From Methanobacteriota archaeon (GTDB lineage: Archaea; Thermoplasmatota; Thermoplasmata; SG8-5; JACRNV01), in assembly GCA_016214785.1 (NCBI GenBank), contig JACRNV010000001.1:240-64239 (forward strand): a stretch of 64,000 bases of DNA, read 5' to 3'. Under the pieces are notes generated by a model. It searched no databases, had not been told where the DNA came from, and was given only the letters and a program-made list of their open reading frames with translations. Position numbers and translations under genes: made by a program. Positions 5,866 to 46,497 of this stretch are shown here, piece after piece; position 1 is the first letter of the stretch, and the number at the start of each line of letters is the position of its first letter.

Positions 5866-8800
5866 ATGAGCGACAGGGAGCGAGGCAGTGGGCTGGTGAC
5901 AAGGGACTCCGGCAAGGTGCTGGCGACGTTGATTCTATTGGCCATGGTGCTGCCATGCTTCTCGGCGGGCGCGCAGGGGAATATTGCCGCTGGCGGCGAC
6001 AAATATATATCAACTCCGGCGACCCCCTCGCCGTCGTGGGCGTCCATTCTCTGCCCGAACGGCGGTGAGACTTTCAAGGGCGGGGACGTCTGCAGCATAG
6101 GCTGGGGCGTGTCCGGCGTGGCGGACCTCGCGGAGAATCCGATCAGATTATACTACTCGATCGACGGAGGGGCGGACTGGACGCTCATCGCGGAGGACGA
6201 GAAAAACGACGGCTCTTTCGAATGGGCGCTGCCGTACCTGACGTCGCAGGACTGCCTCGTGAAGGTCGAAGCGCTCGGCGTTTCGGGGAATGCGGCCATT
6301 GACGCAAGCGACACGGCCTTCGCCATCGACTCGACGCCGCCCTCTGTGAAGGTCACCGCCCCGAACGGGGGCGAGGCGTGGGCCGGCGGCTCCGTAAGGG
6401 AGATAAGGTGGTCGGCCAGCGACGCGGCGGGCCCGGTCAGCATCTCCTATTCGTCCGACGGAGGGCTCGAGTGGCTCGCAATCGCGGCGGGCGAGCCGAA
6501 CGACGGCTCATTCGGATGGGCAGTGCCGGGTGTCACGAGCAGGGACTGCCTCGTGAGGGTCGAGGCTTCGGACGCGGCCGGCAACGCCGGGCGCGACGCG
6601 AGCGACAGGGCATTCACCATAGAATCGACCTGCCCGAGCGTCAGGGTCCTGGGCCCGCGTGCCGGGGAGGCGCTCAGGGGTGGCGCACTCTGCGCGATAG
6701 AATGGGACGCCTACGACAACTTCGCCCTAGGGAGCAACCCGGTCTCGATATACTATTCCGTCGACGGAGGCGCTAACTGGATTCTCATAGCCGCGGGCGA
6801 GCCCAACGACGGCGCCTACGAATGGAAGGCGCCGGCGGTGGACGCGCCCCGGTGCGTTGTCAAGGTCGAAGTGACCGATTCCGCCGGAAAGGTGGGGAGC
6901 GGCGAGGGGGGCGCGTTCTCGGTGAGCTCGCGCGTGGCCTTCAATGCCGTGACCCAGCTGGCATTCGTCCCGGCGGCGGCAGAGGCAGTAGCGGGCATAC
7001 AGGCCGCGCTTGTCGTCCAGGCGCAGAATGCGGCCGGAGCCCCCGAGGACGTGGCCGTCGACACGGTCGTCCAGCTCTTCACCGCGTCGCCGACCGGGGA
7101 GTTCCGGGCCGCGGGGACGCCGATCGCCGTGACCCAGGTGACGATACCGGCATCGTCCAGCACCGCGCCGGTCGATTACTACGACGAGACCGTGGGCGCG
7201 ACCCCATACACGCTGACGGCGGCGGGCGCGGGCCTGGCGAACGGCACTTGCGCCATGCGCGTCAACGTCGCAGAGCCGTACCTGATAGTGGTCTCGCCCG
7301 GCACCGCGACAGTCATAGTCGGAACGCAGCAGCAGTTCACCGCCCAGGCTTTCGACGAGTACGGCAACGAGATAACGGACGCAACACTCATGTGGTCGAC
7401 GGACCTGGGCGTGGTCAACTACGCGGGGACATTCACGGCCCAGACCGCTCCAGGAAACGGGTTCGTCAACGCCTCCCTCGGGGCGGCTACGGGCTCCGCG
7501 CTCGTCGCGGTCGTCCCGAGCGACCTCCACCACATCGAGGTGACGCCATCGCCGGCCACGGTGCCGGTCGGGGGGACGCAGCTCTTCAGGGCGAATGCCT
7601 ACGACATCTACAGCAACAGGCTGTACGGCGTCGGATTCTCCTGGGGCACGAACGTAGGGTCCATCGACGCATCAGGGCTCTTCGCGGCGCAGACCACGCC
7701 CGGCAACGGGACCGTGATCGCGTCCAACGGCTCCATCTCGGGCCAGGCGTCTGTCCGGGTCGCCGCGGGGGCGGCGGACCACATCACCGTCACGCCCCAG
7801 AACGAGACCGTGGCCGTCGGGGACGAGAAGCAGTATGCGGCGGTGGCGTACGACTCCTACGGCAATGCCATCCCGGGCGTGAAGTTCATCTGGAGCACCA
7901 CGGCCGGCTTCATCAACTCGACCGGATACTTCACCGCGAAGAGCACGCCCGGAAACGGCACGGTCACGGCCAGGAACGGAACCCTCAGCGGCTCGACCAA
8001 CGTCAGCGTGAAGATCGGGCGCGTCCACCGCATAGTGGTGACGCCGGGCGCGGCCTCCATCGTCGTCGCGGGGACGCAGCAGTTCAGCGCCGTGGCATAT
8101 GACATGTTCAACAACCTGATAACCGACGTGGCATTCGACTGGGCGTCGGATGTCGGTTCCGTCGATTCGGGAGGCCTCTTCACGGCCCAGACAACGCCGG
8201 GCGCGGGGTTCGTGCAGGCCATGAACAGCTCCGTCGTGGGGACGGCCAACGTGACTGTCTTCACGGGTCCGCTCGACCACATAACCGTGACGCCGGCGAA
8301 CGCGACAGTGAAGGTCGCCTACTCGCAGCAGTTCGACGCGACGGCGTGCGACGCGTTCGGCAACCCGATTTCGGGCATAGGGTTCGCATGGACGACAAAC
8401 GTGGGAGACATCAACTCGACGGGCTTCTTCACGGCGCAGACCGCGCCGGCCACGGGATTCGTGGAGGCGAGGAACGGCTCTCTCACGGCCACGGCGGCTG
8501 TCCAGGTGAAGGCCGGCGACGTCACCTACATCGACATCTCGCCGGACTCGGCCACGGTCGTAGTGGGCGAGACGCTGCAGTTCTCGTACGTGGCATACGA
8601 CGCCTACGGGAACGTCATAACGGACGCGCTGCTCTTCTGGATAACCAACCTCGGCGTCGTCAACTCGACGGGGTTCTACACCGCGCAGACCACGCCCGGA
8701 TATGGCCTCGTGAGCATCACGTCGGGCACGGTCACGGCCTCGGCCAACGTCACGGTCGTCAAAGGGCCGGTCCACCACATACTGGTCAGCCCGAACCCGG

Positions 8801-11800
8801 CGACTGTCGTGGTCGGGAACACGCGCGCCTTCAGCGCGGTGGCGTGCGATGCGTACAACAACACCATATCGGGCGTCATCTTCGCATGGGCCACGGGCGT
8901 CGGCTCCATCGATTCCTCGGGATTCTTCACCGCCCAGACCTTCCCCGGGCTCGGGGACGTCTCCGCGACGAACGGCTCGATAACCGGCAGCGCGCAGGTA
9001 ATCGTGATGCCTGACTCCCTCGACCACATATCCGTGACGCCGAACCCGGCCTCGGTGGTCGCGGGCGGGACGAGGCAGTTCGCGGCCACGGGCTGCGACA
9101 GGTTCGGGAACGAGATTGCCGGGCTGACGTACGCCTGGAGCACCGACGTCGGCTCCATTGACGCAGGCGGGCTCCTGTCGGCGCAAACCACGACCGGGAG
9201 CGGACTTGTCTTCGCGGCGAACGGCTCCATCTCAGGGTCGGCGGCGGTGAATGTCGTCCCTGGCCCGGTCTTCCGCATCGACGTCGTGCCAGGCCCGGCG
9301 ACCGTGACCGTGGGCTCGTCGCTGCAGTTCACGGCCACGGGCTACGACCTTTACAACAACCTGATCCCGGGCATGGCCTTCGACTGGAGCACAAATGCCG
9401 GCTCTGTCGACTCGGGCGGGCTCTTCACCGCCCAGACAACGCCCGGCTCCGGTTACGTGAGGGCGCTGAACGGCTCCGTGAACGGCACGGTCCAGGTGGC
9501 AGTCGTGATTGGAGATGCGGACCACATAGTCGTGCTGCCGAACCCGGTATCTGTAAAGGTGGGGGAGACGCAGCAGTTCTCGGCCACGGCCTACGACGCG
9601 TTCGACAACGTCATAGCCGACGCCGTCTTCACATGGGGTACGTGGCTCGGCATAGTGAATTCCACGGGCTTCTTCACGGCGTACACCATCGCCCGCGTCG
9701 GGCTGGTGAACGCGACGTTCGGCTCGGTCGCCGGCTCGGCTACGGTGGAGGTACTCGCCGACGTCCTGGACCACATCGTCGTGATCCCGTCCACCGTTTC
9801 GGTGACCGTAGGGTTCTCGCAGGCCTTCACGGCGTTGGCCTACGACGTCTACAACAACCCCATCTCTGGCCTCACGTTCCTCTGGAGCACGAACGTCGGC
9901 GTCGTGAACTTCGCGGGCCTCTTCACGGCGCGCACGGCGACGGGCGCGGGCTACGTGAGGGCGGCCGTGGGGGCCATCAACGGCTCCGCGACCGTGATAA
10001 TAGTCCCTGGCCCCGCCCATCACATAAACGTCGTGCCGAATCCGGCGACGGTGCCGGCCGGCGAGGAGCAGCAGTTCACGGCGACGGCGTACGATATCTA
10101 CAACAATCAGATTGCGGGCGCGGTCTTCTCCTGGAGCACGAACGTCGGCGCGATAGACTCGTCGGGGCGGTTCACCGCGCAGGGCACGCCGGCCGTCGGC
10201 AACGTCACGGCGACGAACGGCACCCTCGGCAAGTCGGCGAAGGTCACGGTCGTCCCGGGGAGCGTCGACCACATAGCCGTCGCCCCGAACCCGGTCACGG
10301 TCGTCGTCGGGGGAGAGCAGTCCTTCTCGGCCGTCGCCTATGACAGGTTCGACAACGTCGTCGCAGGGGCGACCTTCATCTGGACGACGAACGTCGGCTT
10401 CGTCGACGCCGGCGGGCACCTGACAGCCAAGACCACTCCTGGAGTAGGCGTGGTCACTGCGATCAGCGGCACGATATCGGGATTCGCGAGCGTCACCGTC
10501 ATCGTCGGCCCGCTCGACCACATCTTCATCTCCCCCGACCCGGCGACGGTCCAGGTCGGCGGCGGCCAGCAGTTCACGGCCGTCGCGTACGACTTCTACA
10601 ACAACGTCCTTTCCGGAGTCGGCTTCGCATGGTCGATCGACATCGGGACAGTGACGCAAACGGGCCTCTTCTCGGCGCCGATCGTCCCCGGCGAGGGCAC
10701 GGTGATTGCTAGCAACGGCTCGGTGTCCGGCACGGCGCAGATATACATCGTCGTGGGGAACGTCAATCACATAATCGTCTCGCCGAACCCCGCGACGGTC
10801 GTTGTGGGGGCCTCCCAGGCCTTCTCGGCCGTCGCATATGATGTCTACGACAACATAATCACGGGAGCGACGTTCATCTGGACGACGAACGTCGGCTCCA
10901 TCGGCTCCGGCGGCGTCCTGACGGCGCAGACCGTCCCCGGCGCAGGCTTCACCCGGGCAAGGAATGGCTCCGTGACTGGCTCGTCGGCAGTAACCGTGGT
11001 CGTGGGCCCTGTGAGCCGCATCACGGTACTTCCGAACCCGACCACCGTGGTTGTCGGGAACACGCGGCTATTCTCGGCGACCGCGTACGATTCCTTCAAC
11101 AACATAGTCCCGAATGCTGTGTTTTCCTGGAGCACCAACGTCGGCGCGATAGACTCCGCAGGGCTGTTCACGGCGCAGACATCCCCGGGCATAGGACTCG
11201 TCACGGCGGCGAACGGCACAATCACCGGCTCCGCGAACGTGACAGTGACGATCGGCCCGATAGACCACATCACGGTCGCCCCGAACCCGGCGAGCGTCCC
11301 GGTCGGGGAGTCGCTCCAGTTCACGGCGGCCGCGTACGACCTCTACAGCAACCCGATAGCGGGCGCCACCTTCACATGGTCGACGAACGCAGGTGTAAGC
11401 GTCGTCAATTCGATGGGCTACTTCACGGCCCAGACCACGCCGACCGCCGGGACTGTGAGCGCCACGAGCGACGCGATAACCGGGAGCGCGAACGTCAACG
11501 TCGTCCCCGGGCCCGTAGCGATACTCTCGGTAGTGCCCGACCCGGTCACGCTCGTCGTCGGTTCCACGCAGGCATTCTCCATACTCGCCTACGACGCGTA
11601 CGGCAACTCCATCTTGAACGTGGAGGCGGTCTGGACCACGAACGTGGGCACGGTCGATTCGAGCGGCCTGCTGACGGCGCAGACCACGCCGGGCTCGGGC
11701 ATCGTGACCGCGCAGAACGGGACGGTCTCGGGCTATGCCAGCGTGACAGTCATCAAGGGGCCGCTCGACCACATCGTCGTGTCGCCCAACCCCTGGACGA

Positions 11801-20800: not shown

Positions 20801-23800
20801 CGACCAACGGGTCCGTGTCGGGCTCCGCCGCAGTCACCGTCCTGGTAGGCTCGATTGTCAGGATATCGGTCGTTCCCAACTCCGTTGCCGTGACCGTGGG
20901 CTCGACGCTCGCGTTCACGGCGATCGCGTTCGACAGCTTCAACAACGCGATTTCGGGCGTGGAATTCGTCTGGGCTACTGACGTTGGCTCAATAAGTGCC
21001 GGCGGCCAGTTCACCGCCCAGCTCGCGCCTGGCGCGGGCACCGTCACGGCGAGCAACGGGAGCGTGACCGGGACTTCGAACGTCACCGTTGTCGTCGGCA
21101 GCATCTACTACATATCCATCAGCCCGCTCCTGACATCCTTGAAGGTCGGGGAGAGCAGGCAGTTCACGGCCACGGCCTACGACTTCTACAACAACGTCGT
21201 TCCTGGCGTGTCGTTCGCATGGACTACCGACGTGGGGTCGATAAGCCCCACGGGCCTATTCACGGCGCAGACCGCGCCAGGCTCCGGGACTGTCACGGCC
21301 ACGAACGGCTCGGTCCACAACCACGCAATCGTGGACGTCCTGGCGGGGGACCTGCACCACATAGCGGTCTCTCCGAGCCCCGTCTCCATCGTCGTGGGCG
21401 GCAGCCAGCAGTTCACGGCGGTCGCATACGACGCCTACGGCAACGCATTGCCCGCTGTGGCCTTTGCATGGGCCAGCGACATGGGCTCGATAGACTCGGC
21501 GGGCCTGCTGGCGGCGCGCACGACCACTGGGTCCGGGACGGTCACGGCCTCCAACGGGACGGTAAGCGGCAGCGCTAACGTGACTCTCACCCCGGGCCCG
21601 CTCCATCACGTCATCGTAACACCTGACCCGGTCACCGTCATAATCAATGGGCTTGTCCAGTTCGTCGCGACGGCATACGACTCCTACAACAACACGATAC
21701 CCGTCGTCGCGTTCGCTTGGTCGACCACGGCCGGCGCCATCGATTCGGCGGGCAATCTCGTCGCTCAGGCGTTCCCTGGCTCGGGGACGGTAACGGCCTC
21801 GAACGGCTCGTTCTCGGACTCTGCCAGCGTCGAGGTCGTCAACGTGCCGATTGACCATATCGTCGTCGTGCCGGACCCGGCCAATGTAACGGTGGGCACA
21901 GCCCAGGCATTCACGGCGATAGCGTTCGACGCGCTCAACAACCCCATCTCCGGCGTCCTATTCGTGTGGACGACGAACGTCGGGGCCATTGACCAGCAGG
22001 GGAGGCTGGCGGCGCAGACGACGCCAGCGACGGGCTTTGTGATGGCCAGGAACGGCACGCTTACCTATTCAACCACGGTGAACGTCGTGCCCGGGGCGGT
22101 CTGCCGCGTCTCGATCAGCCCGGCCAGCGCGAATGTCACGGTCGGTTCCTCTATAGCGTTTACGGCCACTGCCTACGATGTGTATGACAACGCCGTCCCA
22201 GGCGCGACCTTTGCCTGGGCGACGAACGCGGGCACTGTCACCGGCATTGGGATATTCACCGCACAGACGACGCCGGGCGCGGGCACGGTGACGGCGTCTA
22301 ACGGGACCGCCAGCGCGACGGCGAACGTGCAGGTTGCCATAGGCCCCGTGGACCACATAGTCGTCACGCCGGACCCGGCGACGATAACGGTCGGGGCGTT
22401 CTTGCAGTTCTCAGCGACGGCCTACGATGCTTACAATAACCTCGTGGTCGGCGCGGCCTTCTCGTGGAGCACGAACGTCGGGCTCGTCAATGCGACGGGG
22501 TACCTGACTGCGCAGACCGCGCCGGCCGCGGGATGGGTGCGCGCGACGGCCAGCTCCGTCGTTGGCAGCGCCAGCGTCCAGGTCGCTGTCGGCCCGCTGC
22601 ACCACATCACCGTCACTCCTAGCTCGGTCAATGTCATAGTCGGCGGCTCCCAGCAATTCAACGCCGTGGCGTACGACATCTACGGCAACGTCATCGCAGG
22701 CGCGGGCTTCACGTGGAGCACAAACGTCGGGACCGTGGACCCCACGGGGCTGCTGGCCGCGCAATCGACCCCTGGCAGCGGCTTTGTCGGGGCGGCGAAC
22801 GGTTCCATCGTAGGTTCCGCGGCCGTCACCGTGGTCAGCGTCGCCATAGACCACATCCTCGTCGCGCCAAGCCCGGCCACCGTAGTCGTGGGCGCGTCGC
22901 AGGCATTCACGGCGGTCGCCTACGACGCCTCGAACAACCCGATAGGGGGCGTCATTTTCACGTGGGCCACGAACGTCGGCGCCATAAATGCGGCAGGGCT
23001 ATTCACCGCGCAGGGGGCGCCAGGGAACGGCACGGTAACGGCCACGAATGGCTCGGTGACAGGCTCGGCGCCCGTCAGCGTTGTGAGCGTGGCAATCGAC
23101 CATATCGTCGTATCTCCAAACCCGGCAACGGTAGCCGTTGGAGGCACGCAGTCATTCACCGCCACGGCCTACGACGCGCTCGGGAACGCCATCCCGGGAG
23201 TGCTATATGCGTGGACGACCGGTGTCGGTGCAGTAGATCAGCTAGGCTTCTTCACTGCCCAGACGCACCCGGGAATTGGGACGGTGACGGCGACGAACGG
23301 GTCGGTTAGCGCATCGGCCTACGTCAACGTCGTGCCGGGGACGCTCGATCACATAGTGATAGTTCCCGACCCGGCATCAGTGACGGCAGGTGGAACCAAA
23401 GCCTTCATAGCTGTAGCGTTCGATGCCTTCAACAATGTCATCCCTGGCGTCGGGTTCTCATGGTCGGCAAACATCGGCACGATAGACGCAGCGGGAGTGC
23501 TATCTGCCCAGACTGCCGCCGCCACTGGAACGGTGACGGCGTCTAACGGCACGGTCGGCTGGTCCGCCATCGTCAGCGTGATTCCGGGGCCCGTGAGCTA
23601 TATCATGGTAACGCCGAACCCCGCATCGGTCGTCGTGGGCGGGACGCAGGCCTTCGCCGCGTCGGCCTACGACGCCTACGGCAACGCGATATTCGGCATT
23701 TCATTCTCGTGGACGACCGACGTCGGGGCCATCAACTCCGGCGGGCTCTTCACCGCTCAGGCAGCGCCGGGCAGCGGCACCGTCACGGCGGCCAACGGGA

Positions 23801-26800
23801 CAGTCTCGGGCTCGGCCAACGTGACCGTGACGGGCGCTTCCATCGACCACATCGCAGTTACGCCAAACCCGGTGTCGGTCGTTGCCGGGGGCTCGCAGGC
23901 CTTCGCGGCAGTGGCCTACGACCTATACGGCAACGCGATACCCGGCGTTCAGTTCTCTTGGGCGACGGACGTCGGCTCCATAGATGCCGCGGGCCTGTTC
24001 ATTGCGAGGACGCTGCAGGGCTTGGGCGTCGTGACCGCGTCGAACGGGTCTGTCAGCGCGTCGGCGACTGTGAATGTCGTCCCCGGCCCGCTCGACCACA
24101 TCTTCGTCATACCGGACCCGGCATACGTCATTGTGGGCGGTTCGAGGGCATTCAACGCGATAGCCTTCGATGTGTACGGCAATGCGATTTCCGGCGTATC
24201 CTTTGCCTGGACGACCGACGTGGGCGCCATCACCGCGGCGGGCGCCTTCACCGCGCAGTTGGTGGCGGCCAGCGGAATCGTCACGGCGACGAACGGCTCC
24301 GCAAGCTACTCCGCCACGGTCAATGTCCTGCCCGGCCCGGTAGCCTCCATAATCGTAAGCCCGGACCCGGCTTCGGTCATCGTCGGAGGTACGGCTTCCT
24401 TCACGGTCGTGGCCTACGACGCCTATGGCAACATCGTGACCAACGCCCAGCTAGCCTGGTCCACGAACGTGGGCACGATAACGACCACGGGCCTCCTCAC
24501 GGCGCAGACCGTGCCGGGAGCCGGGACGGTAACGGCCTCCAACGGGACCGTGAGCGATTCCGCAGCCGTGAACGTGCTCGTGGGCGCCTTGCACCACATA
24601 ATAGTCTCCCCAGGCCCAGTGAACGTCACCGTTGGCGCGAGCCAGCCGTTCACGGCCGTCGCATACGACCAGTACGGCAACGTCATCGCAGGCGTGGCGT
24701 TCGCATGGGGCGCGAACGTCGGAGCAATTGACGCATCGGGCGTTCTCACGGCAAGGACCACGCCGGGCGCGGGCATCGTCACTGCATCGAACGGGACGGT
24801 CGGCGGCAATGCAAATGTCAATATCGTTGCCGGGCCGCTCCACCACATCGCAGTAGGCCCGGACACGGCCAATGTAATCGTGAACGGGCTGCTGCAGTTC
24901 GTCGCAACCGCCTACGATGTGTACAACAACACGCTGACGGGCATCGGCTTCGCCTGGGGCACCGATGTTGGTACAATCAGTACGACCGGCCTCTTCACTG
25001 CGTGGCTGACGCCCGCAACTGGCACAGTGACCGCGACAAACGTCTCCATATCGGGCTCAGCCAGCGTCACGGTTACCAATGCCGTAGTCGACCATATAAT
25101 CGTCATGCCCGACCCGGCCACGGTCGTGGTCGGCGGCACTCTGGCATTCACAGCCATCGCGTACGACGCATTCAACAACGCCATCTCAGGCATTACCTTC
25201 GTCTGGACGACCGATGTCGGCACCGTCAGCTCTACGGGTGTCCTCACAGCACAGGTGACGCCGGGCGCGGGCACTGTCACTGCGACCTACGGCGCCGTAT
25301 CGGACTCCGCGTCCGTGGCGGTAATGATCGCGAACATCGACCACATTGTCGTTGCGCCGAACCCCGTCTCAGTCGAGGCGACCGGTACGCAGGCCTTCAC
25401 AGGGACCGCATATGACGTGTACGGCAATGCAATAACAGGGGTCAGCTTCGTTTGGACGACGGACATCGGAACCATCGATTCGTCCGGGCTCTTCACGGCG
25501 CGGGCGCTCCAGGGCATCGGGCACGTCCTCGCCGCCAACGGCACTGTCAGCGGCGAGGCGCACGTCGACGTAGTCCCCGGGCCGCTGGACCACATAGTGA
25601 TCGTGCCAGACCCCGCCTACGTTGTAGTGGGTGGCACGAGGGCGTTCATCGCGGTCGCATTCGACGCCTACGGCAACGCGCTGTCCGGCATGAGCTATGT
25701 GTGGACCACCGACATGGGCTCCATCGGCGCCTCCGGCCTCTTCACGGCGCGGCTGCAGACTGGGACGGGCACAGTGACGGCGACGAACGGCTCTGTCAGC
25801 CATTCCGCAGTCGTGTATGTCGTACCCGGCGCGATCGACCATATAATCGTCACGCCAAACCCGGCATCGGTCGTCGTCGGCGGCTCGGTCGCATTCACGG
25901 CGACGGCATACGATGCGCAGGATAACCAAATATCGGACGCAATATTCACATGGACCACGGACGCGGGCTCGGTCGGCGCGACCGGCCTGCTGACCGCGCG
26001 CACGACTCCTGGGTCCGGCACCGTCACAGCCACTAACGGCACGGTTTCGGGCTCGGCAATCGTGAACGTCCTGGTCGGAAGCGTCGATCACATCGCAGTT
26101 TCCCCCGACCCGGTTACGGTTGTTGTTGGCAGCTCCCAGCAGTTCACGGCAGTGGCATACGATGTCTACAACAACGTCGTGTCTGGTGCAGTCTTTCTGT
26201 GGGCAACGAACGTAGGTTCTGTGGTCGGCACGGGCCTGCTGACGGCGCAGACCGCGCCCGGCTCGGGTACGGTCACAGCATCCAACGGCACGGTGAGCAG
26301 CTCGGCGAACGTCACTGTCGTTCATGGCGTCATCGACCACATCATCGTCTCCCCCAGCCCGGCCAGCGTTGCAGCGGGAGGCACGAAATCTTTCACTGCC
26401 GTTGCCTATGACTTCTACGACAATCAGATAGAGGGCGCGAGCTTCGCGTGGTCCACGAATGTGGGCGTCATGAACACGACGGGCTTCTACGTGGCCCAGA
26501 CTGCGATTGGGACAGGTGTGGTGACAGCGACGAGCGGTGGCGTAAGCGGCTCCGCGATCGTGAATGTGACGCCAAGCAACCTGCACCATATAACGGTCGC
26601 GCCCAACCCGGCCACGGTGGTTGTGGGCGGGACGCAGGCATTCTCCGCAGTCGCGTACGACATTTATAACAATGTAATATCGGGAGCAGGGTTCGTCTGG
26701 GGGACCAATGTCGGTTCCATTGACGGCCTAGGCGCACTGACCGCTAGGACAACCCCCGCCCAGGGGACGGTCATCGCCATCAACGGCTCGGTGAGCGGCA

Positions 26801-28815
26801 GCGCGAACGTTTCCGTGATCGCGGGGCCGGTCGATAACATCGTCGTGACCCCGGACCCTGTGAACGTCATAGTCAACGGCGTGTTGGCCTTCACGGCGAC
26901 GGCCTACGACTCTTACGGCAACACGGTGGCAGGCGCATCGTTCGCCTGGTCGGCCAACATCGGCTCCATCGATTCCTCCGGCGTCTTCACAGCCCCTCCG
27001 ACCGTTACCATAGGCGGGGTCACTGCGACCAACGGCACGGTCTCGGGCTCCGCGAGCGTCTCTGTCATAGCCGCCACGGTCGACCACATTGTGGTCACGC
27101 CAGACCCGGCAACGGTGGCGGTGGGCGGCACGCAATTATTCGCCGCCACAGCCTACGACGCGCTCGACAACGTCATCTCGGGCGTGCTGTTCGCTTGGGG
27201 CACCGACATGGGGACGATCGACGCCGCGGGCAAGCTCACCGCCAGGACGACCCCCGGCTCGGGGACGGTCACGGCCACGAACGGCTCCGTCAGCGACTCT
27301 GCCGTCGTCAATGTCATGGTCGGCCCGATAGACCACATAACAGTGGCTCCCAGCCCCGTGACGGTAACTGTCGTGGAGTGCCAGCAGTTCACGGCGACGG
27401 CATACGACGCATATGACAACCTTGTCTCAGGCGCTGTGTTCTCATGGAGCACGAACGTCGGGTTGATAAACTCCACCGGCTACCTTACAGCGCAGATGAC
27501 GCCGGGGGCCGGATGGGCCCGTGCAGCGAGCGGGGGCGTTACGGGCAGCGCCTCGGTGGATGTGGTCCCTGGCGCGATGAATCACATCGCCGTGACGCCG
27601 GACCCGGTCAACGTTATCATAAACGGCGTCCTGCAGTTCAGCGCCGTCGCCTATGATGTCTATGACAATGCCATCCCTGGAGTTACCTTCCTGTGGTCGA
27701 CAGATGTCGGCTCCGTGACCCCGACTGGCCTCTTCACTGCGCAAGGCTCCGTTGGCACGGGTGTGGTAACTGCCGTGAACGGCTCCTTTTCGGATTCGGC
27801 CCAGGTGAACGTAGTCAACGTTGCGATAAAGAGCATCGTCGTCTCGCCCGACCCCGCTTCGGTTGTGATAGGCGGCTCGACCAACTTCACCGCCACGGCC
27901 TACGACGACTTCGGCAACGCCATATACGGCATAGTTTTCGCATGGTCGACGGACGTCGGCGTCATAGACACGTCCGGCCACTTCACGGCGCAGGCCGTCC
28001 CGGGAGCGGGCTCGGTGACTGCTATGAACGGGTCGGTGACAGGCAGCTCGTACATCTCCGTGGCCGAGCACTCGTTCCAGGTAAGCCTCATCTGGGGCTG
28101 GAACCTCGTATCGCTCCCCCTGATTCAGAACGACACTGACATACGCACCGTCCTCTCCTCCATTGACGGCAAATGGGACAGGGCCATGTGGTACGACCCA
28201 TGGTACCCGGCGAACCTGTGGAAGCAGTACAACGTCAACTGGTCCCCGTCGCTGAACGACCTGACGCAGCTCAACCACACGATTGCCTTCTGGCTGCACA
28301 TGGTCATGAACGCCACGCTCACCGTGTACGGCTCGCTGCCGTCGAACATGAGCATAGCCCTGCACGCGGGCTGGAACATGGTCGGCTACCCCGTCATCGA
28401 CGACAGCTCCTACACGATTGGAATGCTGAGGGCGGAGACTGGCGCGGCAATCGTCGAGGGCTTCGACCGAAACGCCACGTATCTCACGAGGATACTCGCC
28501 GACAACTACGTGATGAAGAAAGGGGAGGGATACTGGGTGTACATCCCGAGCCCGACATTCTGGAACGTGGTCAACTCCATGCCGGGCAACCCGGGCGCTC
28601 CCTCCGGGGGGACCGGCGGTGATAACATCGCCTCATCGACGCCGGTGGGCGCCGACCCCCCCGCGCAGTCATCCTTCGATGGAATCAGGGACGTGGGATT
28701 CGATGGGATGCTCGTGAGCGCGGCCGTCGATGGCACGCTCCTCCTTGCAGCGCTCTCGGTATCGCTTTGGCTCCTGCTCCGGTTGAGGGGATGCCGCCGG
28801 AAAGGGGACGGGTGA
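5866..28815 (+). CDS. Giant (7,649 aa) secreted, C-terminally membrane-anchored multi-Ig surface protein (Big_2 x66, DUF11 x5, VWA)
   Basis: Single uninterrupted ORF. It has an N-terminal signal-like segment (KVLATLILLAMVLPCFSAGAQG) and a C-terminal TM plus basic tail (LLLAALSVSLWLLLRLRGCRRKGDG). Recognisable domain repeats run throughout (see the repeat features). All overlapping off-frame ORFs are Arg/Gly/Asp-rich artefacts. Confidence 0.9.
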   Translation: MSDRERGSGLVTRDSGKVLATLILLAMVLPCFSAGAQGNIAAGGDKYISTPATPSPSWASILCPNGGETFKGGDVCSIGWGVSGVADLAENPIRLYYSIDGGADWTLIAEDEKNDGSFEWALPYLTSQDCLVKVEALGVSGNAAIDASDTAFAIDSTPPSVKVTAPNGGEAWAGGSVREIRWSASDAAGPVSISYSSDGGLEWLAIAAGEPNDGSFGWAVPGVTSRDCLVRVEASDAAGNAGRDASDRAFTIESTCPSVRVLGPRAGEALRGGALCAIEWDAYDNFALGSNPVSIYYSVDGGANWILIAAGEPNDGAYEWKAPAVDAPRCVVKVEVTDSAGKVGSGEGGAFSVSSRVAFNAVTQLAFVPAAAEAVAGIQAALVVQAQNAAGAPEDVAVDTVVQLFTASPTGEFRAAGTPIAVTQVTIPASSSTAPVDYYDETVGATPYTLTAAGAGLANGTCAMRVNVAEPYLIVVSPGTATVIVGTQQQFTAQAFDEYGNEITDATLMWSTDLGVVNYAGTFTAQTAPGNGFVNASLGAATGSALVAVVPSDLHHIEVTPSPATVPVGGTQLFRANAYDIYSNRLYGVGFSWGTNVGSIDASGLFAAQTTPGNGTVIASNGSISGQASVRVAAGAADHITVTPQNETVAVGDEKQYAAVAYDSYGNAIPGVKFIWSTTAGFINSTGYFTAKSTPGNGTVTARNGTLSGSTNVSVKIGRVHRIVVTPGAASIVVAGTQQFSAVAYDMFNNLITDVAFDWASDVGSVDSGGLFTAQTTPGAGFVQAMNSSVVGTANVTVFTGPLDHITVTPANATVKVAYSQQFDATACDAFGNPISGIGFAWTTNVGDINSTGFFTAQTAPATGFVEARNGSLTATAAVQVKAGDVTYIDISPDSATVVVGETLQFSYVAYDAYGNVITDALLFWITNLGVVNSTGFYTAQTTPGYGLVSITSGTVTASANVTVVKGPVHHILVSPNPATVVVGNTRAFSAVACDAYNNTISGVIFAWATGVGSIDSSGFFTAQTFPGLGDVSATNGSITGSAQVIVMPDSLDHISVTPNPASVVAGGTRQFAATGCDRFGNEIAGLTYAWSTDVGSIDAGGLLSAQTTTGSGLVFAANGSISGSAAVNVVPGPVFRIDVVPGPATVTVGSSLQFTATGYDLYNNLIPGMAFDWSTNAGSVDSGGLFTAQTTPGSGYVRALNGSVNGTVQVAVVIGDADHIVVLPNPVSVKVGETQQFSATAYDAFDNVIADAVFTWGTWLGIVNSTGFFTAYTIARVGLVNATFGSVAGSATVEVLADVLDHIVVIPSTVSVTVGFSQAFTALAYDVYNNPISGLTFLWSTNVGVVNFAGLFTARTATGAGYVRAAVGAINGSATVIIVPGPAHHINVVPNPATVPAGEEQQFTATAYDIYNNQIAGAVFSWSTNVGAIDSSGRFTAQGTPAVGNVTATNGTLGKSAKVTVVPGSVDHIAVAPNPVTVVVGGEQSFSAVAYDRFDNVVAGATFIWTTNVGFVDAGGHLTAKTTPGVGVVTAISGTISGFASVTVIVGPLDHIFISPDPATVQVGGGQQFTAVAYDFYNNVLSGVGFAWSIDIGTVTQTGLFSAPIVPGEGTVIASNGSVSGTAQIYIVVGNVNHIIVSPNPATVVVGASQAFSAVAYDVYDNIITGATFIWTTNVGSIGSGGVLTAQTVPGAGFTRARNGSVTGSSAVTVVVGPVSRITVLPNPTTVVVGNTRLFSATAYDSFNNIVPNAVFSWSTNVGAIDSAGLFTAQTSPGIGLVTAANGTITGSANVTVTIGPIDHITVAPNPASVPVGESLQFTAAAYDLYSNPIAGATFTWSTNAGVSVVNSMGYFTAQTTPTAGTVSATSDAITGSANVNVVPGPVAILSVVPDPVTLVVGSTQAFSILAYDAYGNSILNVEAVWTTNVGTVDSSGLLTAQTTPGSGIVTAQNGTVSGYASVTVIKGPLDHIVVSPNPWTMSADASKQFGAAGYDLYDNLIDITPVWAVNGGGAVNATGYFAAHAVGTWTIFANDSGVSGQATITVLHGAAVSIDVTPATATITADDTVLYSATAYDADGNAWEVTTGTVFTHNDPKGGMVQNLYSAGQVGTWTVTGVYSGLTDFASVTVNPGAAALLVMDSPSAVDAGAGFSVSVTVFDGDGNVKTDYLGTVGLGSTDPYPATLPADHTFTLPNAGTYSFTNLILYTRTSQNVTARDTAVPALADTDAIAVRGPAIQPVKLVPEKAEPGNVLLYRIYFNNTGENAAANVWLNDTLPSGVTFIDASDGGSYAAGVVRWVFSGILPGIWSVTANVSANAGLANGVLLTNWAYCNHTLASGARMPETRANATTRIFYLPLIDASKTVERIFKDIVVDPDQWGQCTVANTISYKVNITNLQSITDSVDMDKTSKLGWPIALLNTDWTPLADTNGNSYPDTGNLAPSGGMNSIMVNVTVPYNAIVGQEDISYIIGTSYNDANIVDVAQINTTVIPRAPADVVMTIDNSGSMANIEDQQRWVPMTLDISYWAAGWSQLQVRLYFTSNAAGVSGGWTIDDFEVQGNNNDTRFFDNFDGVPRGWSNLVADQWETGTPIGGTDPPSAPSVPNVLGTDVLSGVDGNNQYPNNALWDAISPAIDVSTDTTVKVKFQSWIAVADTADLCYVEIRNGATAWTRIWGCSKIEVLKYCARDFVAGLDPSDRVAVYSFGGTGNEQVIQSQAFLTMTPANKATTLALLATFTANQNTPIWDTIGTSVSYAMTGGWDSFTPPHTPVVVAMTDGDDWGTGGRETGSETYAPGAPSRATAGNVIRTWETNPRSDGNVWGSPVRTYGSIYRLTTAAPQAWSTFALTGDEATRTGLLNAPCAVFTIGLGCNPQGSNSSAAGYISQTALVVGAPAAVSTTSYAYNFTSEYDLRQVANTSKNGSYYFAPTSSQLDAIYIQIAAAVAQLGGTAAAGAKGTISAGDSLMYKLYYNNTGIGVAADVWVNDTLPSCLQLVASNATWSFVNGQYCWHFLNVAPGTHWFWIEVKIDNTVVDSQNVTNAVYVNCTDAEGNALPGSNDTASVDIDEPILSVEKVANRTSAPPGGRINYTIWYNNTGSSMALYVWINDTFDPNTVYISDSAPVPPVINGNKYSWKVFRVMPGSNYFNITVQVINGAAGGTIIGNLAAAEYTNSNNVKHSGASNSNVVNTSVINTRIDVAKTVDKPISDPGKSLTYTIYFNNTGTDVANNVWINETLPLDVTYVAQTTASNATHTLVSWGVSGRYLWFNFSNVQPGNHWFTIIATVNSGTPDGTWMDNYVNLNYTDDVGFCLPYSSATALSVCGVLNVTKTSDLTVIPSTGTTVIRLTIQVKNCHPTYVINNAKANDTLPPGITFAGNVAASKGSWSWNGTVLNWSVGSLLPLEAATISFDVSITPTGVGTYPINYGAFANGTTDTGYLENATSLALNVTARNAPILDFSLWPSSVISKSVGSFSLNVTNIGTTGGMFYNASNDAIEVRIPSAWGAPSGMSGPASWEYQWNGTTRMLTFYYNGTLYYNWASGTTLAFNFGLQAPATQNHDGFLTNGSIHDSIGTKYGFSKTLYVDSVIGPLDHIVVSPSPVSVPVGGTQAFSAAAYDAYNNQITAATFTWGTNMGSVNATGFFTAGTSAGTGFVSATSGSVTGSATVQVTAGPVHHITVSPSPVSVVVGGTQAFTATAFDVYDNPVSGAAFTWATDVGTINAAGSFTARNATGSGIVNATCGSVVGNASVTLIPAAVYRIVVTPNPATVVVGAGQQFAAVAYDVYNNSIPGVSYAWTTSVGSVNATGFFTAQNAPGAGTVTAASGPVSNYTDVSVVAGPLDHIIVTPDPATVTVGQTRPFAAVAYDVYNNALSGVGFAWSTNMGSIDSAGLLIAQTTPGSGYVSAKNGSVYGNATVNVVAGALDHIVVTPDSVSVVVGTTQQFNAVAYDAYNNQLTGVGFAWSTNVGSIDATGLLTARTTPGSGQVTAANGTKSDFATVDVIVGAIDRISVSPNPATVVVGRTKAFTGTAHDIYNNTIPGVVFTWTTNVGTIDPYGVLTAQTMPGNGTVTATNGSVTGSASVSVVIGPASRIEVTPSSATVVIGDTRQFAAQAFDAYDNPIPNATFIWTTNVGIVNSAGLFTAQTVPANGTVSARVGSVTGSASVEVTIGPVHHIIVLPNPASVAVGGTVLFSAAAYDAYNNPIPGVAFAWSTNVGSIDSFGLLTAQMVPGLGTVSASNGSVVGAASVEIVVGGIYYVTISPSFADVEVGEALLFVATAYDYYDNVVPGAVFTWAADVGSVDASGLFVAQTVPGSGYVTATNGTQSASAAVNVTHGPLDRIAVSPDPVTVPVGAAQAFSATAFDEYGNAIPGVSYVWTTNVGTIDSTGAFTARTTPGTGYVTAANGTISDSATVEVVVGPIDHIVVTPGSISIIVGGNQSFSAVAYDSYNNSIQGVSFVWSTDVGSVDSAGHFTAQTFPGTGLVNASNGTFSGTASVEVDLGPVHHISVSPDPATVTVGTTMAFNATAYDQYNNVIPGVDFLWTTNVGAIDAAGTLTAQTTPRTGIVTARNNTRTYSASVTVVPGAVHHISVAPGTAVVVVGATRSFNATAYDVYNNAIPGVVFSWSTDVGSIDPAGTFTAQTTPATGNVAASNSSVTGSAGVDVIVGPPHHIAVTPNSTAVTAGQGRQFSAVAYDIYNNTIFGATILWSTNVGSINSTGYLTAQTTSATGWAHATCGNATGSADVQVIPEALYRISVTPSPATVVVGQAQQFNATGYDFYNNAIPGMAFAWSTNVGTIDANGSFTARITPGIGTVTAQNGTVSKSVNVTVAIGGIDHIVVVPDPLTITVGASQQFIAVAYDAYNNVLPGATFGWATNVGTINATGYYTAQIVPGAGFVTATNGTVSKTVTVTVVHGPLDHITVMPTPLSITVGGAQDFTATAYDAYSNAISGVGFAWSTDVGTVDVAGHFTASTIPGIGTVTATNGSVSGSAAVTVLVGSIVRISVVPNSVAVTVGSTLAFTAIAFDSFNNAISGVEFVWATDVGSISAGGQFTAQLAPGAGTVTASNGSVTGTSNVTVVVGSIYYISISPLLTSLKVGESRQFTATAYDFYNNVVPGVSFAWTTDVGSISPTGLFTAQTAPGSGTVTATNGSVHNHAIVDVLAGDLHHIAVSPSPVSIVVGGSQQFTAVAYDAYGNALPAVAFAWASDMGSIDSAGLLAARTTTGSGTVTASNGTVSGSANVTLTPGPLHHVIVTPDPVTVIINGLVQFVATAYDSYNNTIPVVAFAWSTTAGAIDSAGNLVAQAFPGSGTVTASNGSFSDSASVEVVNVPIDHIVVVPDPANVTVGTAQAFTAIAFDALNNPISGVLFVWTTNVGAIDQQGRLAAQTTPATGFVMARNGTLTYSTTVNVVPGAVCRVSISPASANVTVGSSIAFTATAYDVYDNAVPGATFAWATNAGTVTGIGIFTAQTTPGAGTVTASNGTASATANVQVAIGPVDHIVVTPDPATITVGAFLQFSATAYDAYNNLVVGAAFSWSTNVGLVNATGYLTAQTAPAAGWVRATASSVVGSASVQVAVGPLHHITVTPSSVNVIVGGSQQFNAVAYDIYGNVIAGAGFTWSTNVGTVDPTGLLAAQSTPGSGFVGAANGSIVGSAAVTVVSVAIDHILVAPSPATVVVGASQAFTAVAYDASNNPIGGVIFTWATNVGAINAAGLFTAQGAPGNGTVTATNGSVTGSAPVSVVSVAIDHIVVSPNPATVAVGGTQSFTATAYDALGNAIPGVLYAWTTGVGAVDQLGFFTAQTHPGIGTVTATNGSVSASAYVNVVPGTLDHIVIVPDPASVTAGGTKAFIAVAFDAFNNVIPGVGFSWSANIGTIDAAGVLSAQTAAATGTVTASNGTVGWSAIVSVIPGPVSYIMVTPNPASVVVGGTQAFAASAYDAYGNAIFGISFSWTTDVGAINSGGLFTAQAAPGSGTVTAANGTVSGSANVTVTGASIDHIAVTPNPVSVVAGGSQAFAAVAYDLYGNAIPGVQFSWATDVGSIDAAGLFIARTLQGLGVVTASNGSVSASATVNVVPGPLDHIFVIPDPAYVIVGGSRAFNAIAFDVYGNAISGVSFAWTTDVGAITAAGAFTAQLVAASGIVTATNGSASYSATVNVLPGPVASIIVSPDPASVIVGGTASFTVVAYDAYGNIVTNAQLAWSTNVGTITTTGLLTAQTVPGAGTVTASNGTVSDSAAVNVLVGALHHIIVSPGPVNVTVGASQPFTAVAYDQYGNVIAGVAFAWGANVGAIDASGVLTARTTPGAGIVTASNGTVGGNANVNIVAGPLHHIAVGPDTANVIVNGLLQFVATAYDVYNNTLTGIGFAWGTDVGTISTTGLFTAWLTPATGTVTATNVSISGSASVTVTNAVVDHIIVMPDPATVVVGGTLAFTAIAYDAFNNAISGITFVWTTDVGTVSSTGVLTAQVTPGAGTVTATYGAVSDSASVAVMIANIDHIVVAPNPVSVEATGTQAFTGTAYDVYGNAITGVSFVWTTDIGTIDSSGLFTARALQGIGHVLAANGTVSGEAHVDVVPGPLDHIVIVPDPAYVVVGGTRAFIAVAFDAYGNALSGMSYVWTTDMGSIGASGLFTARLQTGTGTVTATNGSVSHSAVVYVVPGAIDHIIVTPNPASVVVGGSVAFTATAYDAQDNQISDAIFTWTTDAGSVGATGLLTARTTPGSGTVTATNGTVSGSAIVNVLVGSVDHIAVSPDPVTVVVGSSQQFTAVAYDVYNNVVSGAVFLWATNVGSVVGTGLLTAQTAPGSGTVTASNGTVSSSANVTVVHGVIDHIIVSPSPASVAAGGTKSFTAVAYDFYDNQIEGASFAWSTNVGVMNTTGFYVAQTAIGTGVVTATSGGVSGSAIVNVTPSNLHHITVAPNPATVVVGGTQAFSAVAYDIYNNVISGAGFVWGTNVGSIDGLGALTARTTPAQGTVIAINGSVSGSANVSVIAGPVDNIVVTPDPVNVIVNGVLAFTATAYDSYGNTVAGASFAWSANIGSIDSSGVFTAPPTVTIGGVTATNGTVSGSASVSVIAATVDHIVVTPDPATVAVGGTQLFAATAYDALDNVISGVLFAWGTDMGTIDAAGKLTARTTPGSGTVTATNGSVSDSAVVNVMVGPIDHITVAPSPVTVTVVECQQFTATAYDAYDNLVSGAVFSWSTNVGLINSTGYLTAQMTPGAGWARAASGGVTGSASVDVVPGAMNHIAVTPDPVNVIINGVLQFSAVAYDVYDNAIPGVTFLWSTDVGSVTPTGLFTAQGSVGTGVVTAVNGSFSDSAQVNVVNVAIKSIVVSPDPASVVIGGSTNFTATAYDDFGNAIYGIVFAWSTDVGVIDTSGHFTAQAVPGAGSVTAMNGSVTGSSYISVAEHSFQVSLIWGWNLVSLPLIQNDTDIRTVLSSIDGKWDRAMWYDPWYPANLWKQYNVNWSPSLNDLTQLNHTIAFWLHMVMNATLTVYGSLPSNMSIALHAGWNMVGYPVIDDSSYTIGMLRAETGAAIVEGFDRNATYLTRILADNYVMKKGEGYWVYIPSPTFWNVVNSMPGNPGAPSGGTGGDNIASSTPVGADPPAQSSFDGIRDVGFDGMLVSAAVDGTLLLAALSVSLWLLLRLRGCRRKGDG
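6052..6930 (+). repeat. Three ~98-aa N-terminal beta modules with an Asp-box-like motif
   Basis: The pattern GGE.(W/F).GG....I.W.....-I(S/Y)YS.DGG..W..IA.GE.NDG(S/A)..W..P.V.S..C.V.VEA.D.AGN....SD.AF.I occurs three times. Confidence 0.7.
7270..12255 (+). repeat. Big_2-like Ig array 1: 20 tandem units (17 of 83 aa, one of 85 aa, two divergent of 82/84 aa)
   Basis: Unit consensus is GP.DHI.V.P.PATV.VG..QQF.A.AYD.YNN.I.G..F.W.T.VG.ID..G.FTAQT.PG.G.V.A.NGS..GSA.V.V. Unit starts verified at 7270, 7519 and 11005 (7270+249n); later units start at 11509, 11758 and 12004. Confidence 0.9.
13345..14690 (+). other. von Willebrand factor A (VWA) domain with intact MIDAS, interrupted by a ~168-aa jelly-roll insert (13381-13885)
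   Basis: DVVMTIDNSGSM (DxSxS) ... [insert] ... KIEVLKYCARDFVAGLDPSDRVAVYSFGG ... NTPIWDTIG ... VVVAMTDGDD. Confidence 0.75.
14715..16190 (+). repeat. Four DUF11 (conserved repeat domain) units; a fifth lies at ~12560-12950
   Basis: GDSLMYKLYYNNTGIGVAADVWVNDTLPSCLQLV, GGRINYTIWYNNTGSSMALYVWINDTFDPNTVYI, GKSLTYTIYFNNTGTDVANNVWINETLPLDVTYV, ...NNAKANDTLPPGITFAGNV; the upstream unit reads GNVLLYRIYFNNTGENAAANVWLNDTLPSGVTFI. Confidence 0.75.
16615..28068 (+). repeat. Big_2-like Ig array 2: 46 tandem units, each 83 aa / 249 nt
   Basis: I parsed the translation into 46 consecutive 83-aa units. Unit starts were confirmed on the DNA at 16615, 16864, 21346, 23089, 23836, 24583, 25330, 26575 and 27820, all equal to 16615+249n. 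Confidence 0.9.
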
Positions 28816-31800: not shown

Positions 31801-31995
31801 GCCCATAAGAACGCGCGCGCCTCGTTCAAGCGCATAGGCGCGGAGCTCGCCGACGAGCGTCGACTTGCCTATGCCGGCTTCGCCGGAAACGATGATGGAC
31901 GAGCCCTTGCCGCCGACGGCGTCGTCCAGCATCTTCTTGAGGCTCTGGAGCTCCGATTCCCTGCCGACGAGCCTGGGCGCGGACACGATTTGCAT
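28876..31995 (-). CDS. AAA_16 (STAND-type) P-loop NTPase with C-terminal TPR array and a Roadblock/LC7-like insertion
   Basis: RLVGRESELQSL..GKGSSIIVSGEAGIGKSTL (Walker A), PLLLVLEDVHWADESS (Walker B), and about 600 aa of TPR-like helical repeats. Start placed at Met29 (31995); the alternative start is 32079. Confidence 0.8.
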   Translation of the reverse strand: MQIVSAPRLVGRESELQSLKKMLDDAVGGKGSSIIVSGEAGIGKSTLVGELRAYALERGARVLMGAAAADSGHPFLLISSAFAGHGGEALFDTGEHASFSKVFAIDPAGQLIAAVSPGSRDEGAGALAGMLSAVQGFVRDSFQGGSGKGSLGRLEYGDMKILIEHEERLFLAAVVKEAEHPEMRHALRLAAHDLESKFGAVIEKWNGRDGYLSPVKGALIPLLERRFAVRREHEGVSLEGERARIAEGAQKLVAGLARERPLLLVLEDVHWADESSLFVLGYVARNAAGLGALIVATRRPEEGRASIAGLGIAELRLGRLDTPAAAGIARSLFEPNDFPAEFLSRLSEQGGGNPFFIVETLRRMRDEGSISFKAGAYSLVREDCAIPDSVEAVVQARLSALEPDAMSMAEYASCLGREFDIDAALSNATLKSASRALAKLREAGIVLGDEGRGRFSHALFQDVVYRGISGRWKSAHHKSLGEYYEARHAGATDDVLYELARHFSRTSEHRKAFEYSFRSGEKAEGSFAAEQALELYKSALGFLPKAGAVPPGTESVLRERIGDCYKSLGEPPLAMAEYGALLAAHSSDPDGYIRIILKMDEIAFHLRDRKEVSRLLGLGSVMAPRAGPEAAAEFYSRQALDVHDTDPKEASELASLALEKLSAVSDRRTVAKVHITLGQVRDGLGGYADAVPLVIKAIEIAEGLGDARILASAYEQMGSMRHSHGEFASAIKMQEKALALRERMGDVFGMFSIYINLGNASADFNMPERATECHRSALAIGRRLGNDPMMAMALGNLGYALSMTGRNEEALATQSEALALRQGYDGKLGIGWSYSDLAIVHINLGNLGEAEDCALKSLGEWEPLGYDMGVSIAHLMLGNILSANGERDGAIEHYNMSLEIARRCDLIVEKFSSLAELVDLSAVPDVTEAFRELDALSAKIGRPDFQATVARLKACEALKSGDHARAHGILDSELALNAGQKGIEAELSRASLLRASARALAAQGEAGKGRATAAESAALFRKAGRLLEAGKSEELARTL

Positions 31996-32196
31996 ATAGG
32001 ATAGATAGATAATAAGCGTTTTCGCCAACTGACCACATTGCGGCCACCTCTTCTCAGTTCCCTTATCCCCTCTGACCACCCTGTAAGGTCATCGGAGGTG
32101 TCACAGTTGCTCGAATACGTGTACCTGGCAATGGAGGCGACGAGGGCGGTCAGGAAGAGCAAGAACGTCCCAGTCATCTAAAACCCTTACATGATT

Positions 32197-46128: not shown

Positions 46129-46497
46129 ATGTCTAGCGTTGGGGATATCAAGAACGAGCTCAAAAAGCTCAGCACGGAGCACAAGATAGAGATTTCAGCG
46201 ATAGTCTCGCGCAGCGGCGTGCCAATCGCGTGGAACGTCCCCGACGAGTCGATGGTCGAGACATTCGCCACTCTGTCCGCGACCATAGTCGGCGCTGCCG
46301 AGGTCGTCTACACCGGATTGGGCAAGGCCCCCCCGAAAAGAATAATGATAGACTCGGACGGCGGGACGTTCATAGCGACCCCGATAGGGACGAAAGCGCT
46401 GCTCGTCGGCATAAGCAGCAACAGGGACCGGGCATCGCTCTCTTCCGGCCTGGACGCGGTGGCCAACGCCGTGAAGGGGGTGCTGAGCAGTGAATAG
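46129..46497 (+). CDS. Roadblock/LC7 (MglB-like) family protein
   Basis: 122 aa. IEISAIVSRSGVPIAWNVPDESMVETFATLSATIVGAAEVVYTGLG...RIMIDSDGGTFIATPIGTKALLVGISS fits the Robl_LC7 alpha-beta-alpha pattern. Confidence 0.7.
   Translation: MSSVGDIKNELKKLSTEHKIEISAIVSRSGVPIAWNVPDESMVETFATLSATIVGAAEVVYTGLGKAPPKRIMIDSDGGTFIATPIGTKALLVGISSNRDRASLSSGLDAVANAVKGVLSSE

Follow-up and report, generated by a model that had tools for sequence, protein, structure and literature searches.

Constant length amid divergent sequence in the Ig-like arrays of a giant predicted surface protein of an archaeon

What keeps a tandem protein domain at exactly the same length, copy after copy, while its sequence diverges? 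The question is raised by a gene in a stretch of DNA from an uncultured groundwater archaeon (contig JACRNV010000001.1 of assembly GCA_016214785.1, positions 240 to 64,239), whose 64,000 nucleotides are called here the window. A single uninterrupted open reading frame (ORF), at 5866-28815 on the forward strand, encodes P0001, a putative surface protein of 7,649 amino acids (aa) that contains two arrays of immunoglobulin (Ig)-like units. An original prediction, drawn from the letters of the window alone, counted 63 such units of exactly 249 nt kept in register across both arrays, and supposed that their strict length reflects structural selection, for example for a regular rod. The count stands, and so does the register within each array. 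A single register spanning both arrays does not, since (16615-7270)/249 is not an integer.

I propose that the arrays are a fibrillar-adhesin-like stalk that does not recombine, that is under strong selection against insertions and deletions (indels), and that would behave as a semi-rigid rod of constant pitch. I put the probability of this reading at roughly 0.6. The evidence begins with the units themselves.

Units of constant length

The 63 units of exactly 83 aa comprise 17 in array 1 and all 46 in array 2. A single unit of 85 aa brings the number of canonical beads to 64, or 66 if the two divergent units that close array 1 are counted. When array 2 is cut at 16615+249n, all 46 consecutive units open with a junction resembling G-P-x-D-H-I, and the last ends exactly at 28068. 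Both arrays are laid out as the original prediction had them, including the 83-aa units 1-16 and 18 of array 1, with the 85-aa unit between them and the two divergent units at the end. Aligned by MAFFT without guidance, the 63 exact units fill 83 columns with no gaps. Eight of the columns are invariant (P10, D29, N33, W42, G47, G53, A57, and G64), and conservation reaches 90% or more in a further nine. Compensating indels, which might have been concealed within units of equal length, are excluded, because the fixed anchor columns between the unit ends leave no room for them. The spacing between neighbors, as judged by a profile of the unit, is 83 in 62 of 63 cases and 85 in the other.

How rare are indels in the arrays, relative to the rest of the protein? 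A measure is provided by an orthologous locus, L001, from the metagenome-assembled genome (MAG) Methanobacteriota archaeon SF.bin11 (contig JAEHCQ010000001.1, reverse strand), found by a search with the non-repeat center of P0001. Positionally orthologous array units of the two proteins, at 52-56% identity, differ by 2 gap events over 3,652 aligned residues. The central module, at 56% identity, has 13 over 1,370, and the N-terminal region, at 45% identity, has 6 over 457. Gap events per aligned residue are thus 17-24 times rarer in the arrays than outside the repeats of this pair of proteins. In L001, 63 of the 65 canonical units are 83 aa long, including all 18 of array 1. The two exceptions, both of 82 aa and both in array 2, lack a residue in the 50-53 loop in the one case and in the linker in the other. 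In P0001 the only canonical unit off length (unit 17) has two extra residues inserted in the N-x-G...G loop, at unit positions 47-53, and its counterpart in L001 has the usual 83. The branches of a tree of 129 units sum to 53.4 substitutions per site, which over 83 sites amounts to about 4,400 substitutions, and three small indel events are seen. Each of the three falls in the 50-53 loop or in the linker, where alone the unit has slack.

Might so compact a fold dictate its own length? Suppose that the arrays grew from one founder of 83 aa and that purifying selection of the ordinary kind, acting on a compact beta-sandwich, did the rest, with no requirement for pitch or rod. The three tolerated indels lie just where a generic constraint of the fold would permit them, in a loop of 4 residues or in a linker, and in the AlphaFold2 (AF2) models discussed below the loops are already minimal, so that deletions would break strands. 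Many homologous arrays, moreover, likewise keep one dominant period. Among 1.84 billion representative proteins, 19,037 were found by profile search to carry a domain of the same kind. The best 150 of these, ranked by a profile built from P0001 itself (a caveat on any comparison within the family), yielded 59 arrays, including that of P0001, with at least 10 adjacent units each. Preferred periods elsewhere in the family are 87 aa (P0004, P0006), 84 aa (P0012, P0015), 85 aa (P0023, P0036), and also 86 aa.

It is in the strictness of the period that passive uniformity falls short. The arrays were compared by counting spacings that depart from the mode of each array and normalizing the count by the length of its tree. 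(A count of indel features from hmmalign was dropped as a measure, since a profile from P0001 favors P0001.) Units in the family arrays range over 79-93 aa and beyond, so the same fold takes other lengths in other proteins. In other arrays of comparable divergence (mean identity 0.4-0.6), 40-85% of the spacings fall at the mode, compared to 98% in P0001. Off-length units arise in P0001 at a rate of 0.50 per 1,000 substitutions, which is 3.5 times below the next-lowest diverged array (1.74) and about 18 times below the median of 58 arrays (about 9). A lower rate is found only in P0012, whose units are nearly identical (92% on average) and never off length. The deficit is also present in L001, and I consider the passive explanation unlikely, though it deserves to be taken seriously. 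The original contention, that sequence has been conserved much less strictly than length, is upheld on both counts, the gap events and the rate, which is the lowest among diverged arrays.

Age and order of the units

Large repeat arrays in metagenome bins are often mis-assembled. On that general expectation, supported by nothing found here, one may ask whether the array is an artefact, stitched together or collapsed from near-identical repeats, or else the product of a very recent, homogenized expansion. The units are too different for either. Over all pairs, nucleotide identity averages 59% and reaches at most 70.7%, and amino-acid identity averages 51% with a range of 35-68%. Neighbors are no closer (mean 51%, range 41-65%), a level similar to the 50-65% that had been estimated by hand, if slightly lower. 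The identity of units as a function of the lag between them shows no periodic rise, and no super-repeat was seen. Third codon positions are 45% identical between units, versus 37% predicted from composition, which implies that synonymous sites are near saturation. Because of this near-saturation, under a strong bias in third-position GC content (GC3), estimates of nonsynonymous and synonymous divergence (median dN 0.45 and dS 1.23 by the Nei-Gojobori method, NG86) are unreliable. The dN/dS check that had been suggested thus served to reveal the saturation, but the values themselves are not trustworthy.

The longest exact repeat in the 20.8-kb array region is 25 nt. The sequence of P0001 is present in three groundwater-metagenome runs of one study. 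Logan contigs from the best of these (X1) provide four independent pieces that tile 8500-28400 with no mismatches, one of them (9,047 nt) covering 36 units, and depth stays flat at 10-16x over the two arrays and the module between them. In a second sample there are many short contigs identical to P0001, and a third also shows no differences, over short pieces. Reported contig 'joints' turn out to be cross-matches between units, with sides of merely 20-42 nt. Artefact and recent amplification are excluded by these observations together with the positional orthologues described below, and I give such explanations virtually no weight. In this respect the original view, that the divergence makes collapse in assembly less likely and points away from recent amplification, was correct, and nucleotide identity between units is too low to suggest mis-assembly.

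If the units are old, do they keep their places? L001 has the same plan as P0001: a similar N-terminus, 18 canonical and 2 divergent units, a central module, and at least 47 units thereafter. The L001 ORF runs to 7,248 codons or more, its 3' end lying beyond the locus, which makes 47 a minimum. The central modules align end to end, and the N-terminal regions are collinear. After removal of row and column effects, all 18 diagonal scores between the two arrays 1 are positive, and in 9 of the 18 cases none of the 65 candidates in L001 scores better than the same-numbered unit. The diagonal of array 2 is kept to about unit 26-31 and is then offset by 3-4 units. The unit-level alignment of array 2 scores 47.5, compared to 32.6 +/- 2.9 when the order is shuffled. 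From further lineages come two metagenomic fragments, P0020 and P0027, which match units lA01-06 and lA06-09 one-to-one at 61-83% identity and whose own units are spaced at exactly 83 residues. Comparison of the sequences thus identifies the units as positional orthologues across at least four lineages. It follows that the duplications that gave rise to them are older than the split of the lineages, and the units are not homogenized.

The comparison of copy number between orthologues, which the original prediction had called for, finds 18 + 2 units preserved in array 1 and a difference of a few whole units in array 2. As judged from the alignments, every change seen is the gain or loss of a whole unit and falls within the membrane-proximal third of array 2. 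In the unit tree, B30 and B36 are sisters, as are B31 and B37 (support 0.92 and 0.97; 23836-25827), a whole-unit block duplication within array 2. B20 is likewise sister to B33 (21346-24831). Other searches for homologues returned little: the C-terminal region found only P0001 itself and P0003, which shares the C-terminal domain, the central region retrieved only DUF11 giants built on another plan, and no relative came out of a metagenome scan with the central alignment of the two species.

Fold and layout of P0001

What kind of bead is it that tolerates so much substitution and so few indels? A stretch of three units of array 2 matches Pfam Big_2 (PF02368) at 42.6 bits (E = 6e-11, covering positions 4-79 of the model; gathering threshold 22.8). 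Three units of array 1 reach only 16.5 bits. Since these fall below the threshold, the units are best regarded as a divergent subfamily of Big_2. AF2 modeled three units with a predicted local distance difference test score (pLDDT) of 98 and a predicted template-modeling score (pTM) of 0.78, and six units with a pLDDT of 94 and a pTM of 0.54, from inputs that were not strictly register-true, as MAFFT had slid some rows by whole units (A2, 415 columns; A4, 1,079 columns). The modeled unit consists of eight or nine short strands connected by loops of 2-4 residues, plus one conserved loop of 12 residues with D29, N33, and G37. The last strand (73-82) passes by way of a 5-residue linker into the first strand of the following unit. 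Foldseek found the best matches in the Big_2 pair of LigA (8gyr; E = 1e-11, TM-score 0.49 on the target) and in FdeC (4e9l), followed by Nup210, a tail protein of phage SU10, and S-layer proteins (SbsC, Sap, EA1); titin (3b43) was matched as well. By a profile search of the PDB, the nearest solved sequences are Leptospira LigA (E = 2e-3) and Nup210. The models show the units as Big_2-like beta-sandwich beads on a string, with minimal loops.

Positions of the parts of P0001 and of neighboring genes are collected in Table 1.

Table 1. Parts of P0001 and neighboring features of the window
Feature	Position	Strand	Remarks
N-terminal region	5866-7269	+	Signal-like segment, three Ig-like modules of ~100 aa (Big_7 / Kre9-KNH-like), one further beta domain
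Array 1, units 1-16	7270-11253	+	Every unit exactly 83 aa / 249 nt
Array 1, unit 17	11254-11508	+	85 aa; sole off-length canonical unit of P0001
Array 1, unit 18	11509-11757	+	83 aa
Two divergent Ig units closing array 1	11758-12003 (82 aa), 12004-12255 (84 aa)	+	Strongly conserved in the orthologue L001
Central non-array module	12256-16614	+	Beta domains, DUF11-type repeats, VWA domain with insert
Array 2	16615-28068	+	46 consecutive units, each exactly 83 aa / 249 nt
C-terminal beta-rich domain (~165 aa), then Gly/Pro/Ser linker	28069-28698	+	Assigned from sequence
Hydrophobic C-terminal segment (~aa 7612-7636), basic tail RLRGCRRKGDG, stop	28699-28815	+	By inspection; Kyte-Doolittle 1.95
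STAND-type NTPase gene	28876-32079	-	AAA_16 + TPR arrays; paralogous to 47982-50474, the two flanking the surface-protein region
CARDB-domain gene	35666-36814	-	Contains a 306-bp tandem repeat (35870-36591; 2.3 copies, 81% matches)
GvpD/KaiC-like ATPase gene	46490-48004		
STAND-type NTPase gene	47982-50474	-	AAA_16 + TPR arrays; paralogous to 28876-32079
Second giant surface-protein gene	53076-63998	+	Still open where the window ends, after more than 3,600 codons; modules of jelly-roll/MAM-like and Ig-like type recur, with many sequons; architecture differs from that of P0001

The N-terminal region, presumably the distal tip, begins with a hydrophobic segment at aa 18-36 (Kyte-Doolittle peak 2.25 at aa 18), and it scores 43 bits against Big_7 and 25.6 bits against Kre9_KNH. 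The central module matches Pfam DUF11 at 95 bits and also TIGR01451. Its VWA domain is uninterrupted in L001, where PF00092 scores 38.8 bits (cut-off 23.8), and the split copy in P0001 falls below the Pfam threshold. Pairwise alignment with L001 shows that P0001 keeps the DxSxS motif, as DNSGS, and DGDD as well. The split is caused by an insert of 166 aa (~13381-13878) directly after the DxSxS loop. The insert has a weak, sub-threshold match to an InhA-like MAM domain and is absent from the orthologue in SF.bin11.

The C-terminal beta domain (28069-28560, GWNLVSLPL...GEGYWVYIP) matched no family in Pfam or NCBIfam. It recurs at the C-terminus of P0009, a protein of 2,678 aa with ten 83-aa units, and, at 46% identity, in P0003, a beta-helix protein of 4,989 aa that is otherwise unrelated. 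It is probably a membrane-proximal module shared by archaeal surface proteins. The hydrophobic segment that follows is, from its sequence, the presumed membrane anchor. A motif check found no PGF-CTERM at the C-terminus, and sorting by that route was rejected on this ground.

P0001 has 161 N-x-S/T sequons. An N-G-S/T sequon stands at unit position 70 (positions 70-72) in 77% of the units, in P0001 and L001 alike, and the protein would accordingly be expected to be N-glycosylated. Acidic residues are few in the units (D 4.3%, E 0.6%) and cysteine is almost absent. Histidine occupies junction position 5 in 70-85% of the units, forming the D-H of positions 4-5, for which a role in metal binding is conceivable. 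Outside P0001, a gene for an M32 peptidase is its neighbor.

A proposed stalk and its relatives

The layout of P0001, if read from the distal end to the membrane, would be a signal-like N-terminus and Ig tip, 18 + 2 beads, the DUF11/VWA module, 46 beads, the beta domain, and a transmembrane anchor. The central VWA would act as a metal-dependent ligand-binding module. The beads arose by old duplications and have diverged so far that no exact match between any two of them is longer than 25 nt. Shared runs so short offer no substrate for unequal crossing-over or slippage. The number and order of the units are largely frozen. Nearly all small indels would be purged by selection, while substitutions at the surface would be free to accumulate. 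With loops that are minimal to begin with, deletions would be excluded. Insertions would have to be barred by some additional constraint, candidates for which are the straightness or pitch of the rod, the protease resistance of tight loops, and packing with neighbors or glycans. At 3.5-4.5 nm per bead, my estimate based on Ig-bead adhesins in general, the stalk would be some 230-300 nm long and would hold the N-terminal tip and the VWA/DUF11 module each at a set distance from the cell membrane. Divergence between neighbors may also guard against misfolding between domains, which fits a known rule discussed below.

Of the original appeal to a regular rod, the strong constraint on length has been borne out, and the regularity is plausible rather than proven: judging from the models, a regular rod is a plausible specific cause. 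Several points weigh against the stalk as I have described it. Other arrays also hold a dominant period (18 of 19 spacings in P0008, 42 of 50 in P0015), and P0001 stands at the far end of a continuum rather than in a class apart. The fold by itself fails to explain why insertions are excluded, because homologous domains elsewhere tolerate 79-93 aa. Some flexibility at the hinges between beads is likely, since the pTM of the models drops to 0.54 at six units. The structural support consists of predicted models. A co-evolving interface between domains is without evidence in the sequences, within a small sample of 125 pairs: the maximum mutual information between units, after average product correction, is 0.166 at lag 1, not distinguishable from 0.13-0.15 at lags 2-6. 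Comparisons with an orthologue depend on L001, the single near-full example, and the signal peptide and membrane anchor were called by inspection and Kyte-Doolittle hydropathy.

Could pitch be constant for the sake of something outside the protein? Copies of P0001, or a partner such as an S-layer or another fiber, might pack against it side by side in staggered or antiparallel fashion, and beads of equal length would then be needed to stay in register, as titin super-repeats do along the thick filament. Extreme invariance of length alongside free substitution at the surface would suit such an arrangement, as would the glycan sequon conserved at a fixed position of the unit and the resemblance of the beads to those of S-layer proteins (SbsC, Sap, EA1). 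On the other hand, no sign of oligomerization was found, a surface so poorly conserved (51% identity) argues against a specific lateral interface repeated from bead to bead, and no periodic super-repeat is evident in the relation of identity to lag. Parallel homo-oligomers in register, for their part, could do without equal unit lengths. Higher-order packing is to my mind a long shot. A bolder version holds that the arrays are a length-calibrated ruler of 18 + ~46 non-interchangeable beads with an obligatory pitch of 83 residues, serving a staggered periodic sheath or canopy. It would, if true, be the first archaeal counterpart of the register principle of titin and the thick filament, but I think it quite improbable.

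The semi-rigid stalk, then, is the reading to be compared with what is known. Giant surface proteins made of Ig beads are common, and most attention has gone so far to those with near-identical, rapidly changing repeats. P0001 is the opposite case, a long, old, non-recombining array conserved by position, in which indels are rarer by one to two orders of magnitude than in flanking domains and homologous arrays. It may be used as a natural test bed to learn what sets the tolerance of tandem domains for indels and what a constant pitch contributes to the mechanics or packing of fibers. It also documents, in an archaeon, an architecture of two stalks around a VWA/DUF11 module, and archaeal surface appendages of this sort have barely been described.

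The class of fibrillar adhesins is defined by tandem stalk domains together with an adhesive domain, with VWA listed among the adhesive domains and Big_2 among those of the stalk (PMC8286594). P0001 has the first in its 18 + 2 and 46 Ig units and the second by way of the VWA of L001 and the copy aligned to it. Attachment to the surface is suggested, on inspection, by the hydrophobic N-terminal segment and by a hydrophobic C-terminus with a basic tail. By this domain-based definition P0001 is, from its sequence, a fibrillar-adhesin-like protein in an archaeon. It is like Leptospira LigA/LigB (8gyr), E. coli FdeC (4e9l), and intimin/invasin in being a long single chain with a tandem stalk of the Big_2 type and, as in the class, a VWA-type adhesive module, and LigA and FdeC are the best matches to its units in both sequence and fold. 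Unlike bacterial fibrillar adhesins, it is archaeal, with a predicted C-terminal transmembrane helix in place of an outer-membrane barrel, a sortase motif, or a type I secretion system (T1SS). Its two stalks surround a central adhesive module, where bacterial fibrillar adhesins carry an N-terminal head on a single stalk. The canonical beads of P0001 number 64 (66 with the divergent ones), compared to 12-13 in the Lig proteins, and their length is nearly invariant.

Giant repeat adhesins are also known among bacteria. Salmonella SiiE has 53 bacterial Ig-like (BIg) domains. MpIBP of Marinomonas has about 120 Ca2+-binding BIg repeats (PMC5550230), and an adhesin of Mobiluncus mulieris has 7,651 aa and 51 Ig-like domains (PMC10619420). 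P0001 resembles all three in its size, its bead count, and its presumed role as a long spacer in adhesion or biofilm. The repeats of MpIBP are near-identical, however, whereas the units of P0001 are about 51% identical, and they are poor in acidic residues, unlike BIg repeats clamped by Ca2+. A search of P0001 for RTX repeats and a T1SS signal turned up one match to GGxGxD, in the Gly-rich linker, and a C-terminus made of a hydrophobic helix and basic tail. A Ca2+-clamped adhesin of the RTX type was rejected, there being no RTX repeats and few acidic residues.

Periscope Proteins (SasG, Rib, and the SHIRT arrays of Sgo_0707) are similar in that a rod-like stalk of tandem domains sets the projection of a binding module. 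They have near-identical DNA repeats that vary in number from strain to strain, and they break the rule that neighboring tandem domains diverge (PMC8201768). P0001 follows the rule. It has none of the highly similar, recombining DNA repeats of Periscope Proteins (maximum identity 70.7%, mean 59%, longest repeat 25 nt), and unlike theirs its units are largely kept in number and order between distant relatives.

In the divergence of neighbors and the positional orthology of domains between species, P0001 resembles titin (I65-I70, PDB 3b43) and other eukaryotic strings of Ig and Fn3 domains. The likeness has limits: P0001 belongs to an unrelated lineage and Ig subtype, and there is no evidence here of a partner filament that sets the period. 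The lengths of domains and linkers in titin vary more than those of the P0001 array. As a giant putative surface adhesin with an Ig stalk, P0001 is of a kind already known, and it reveals no new fold or mechanism. What is distinctive is that one protein combines so large a number of beads with deep divergence, with positional orthology, and with a length that is conserved almost absolutely.

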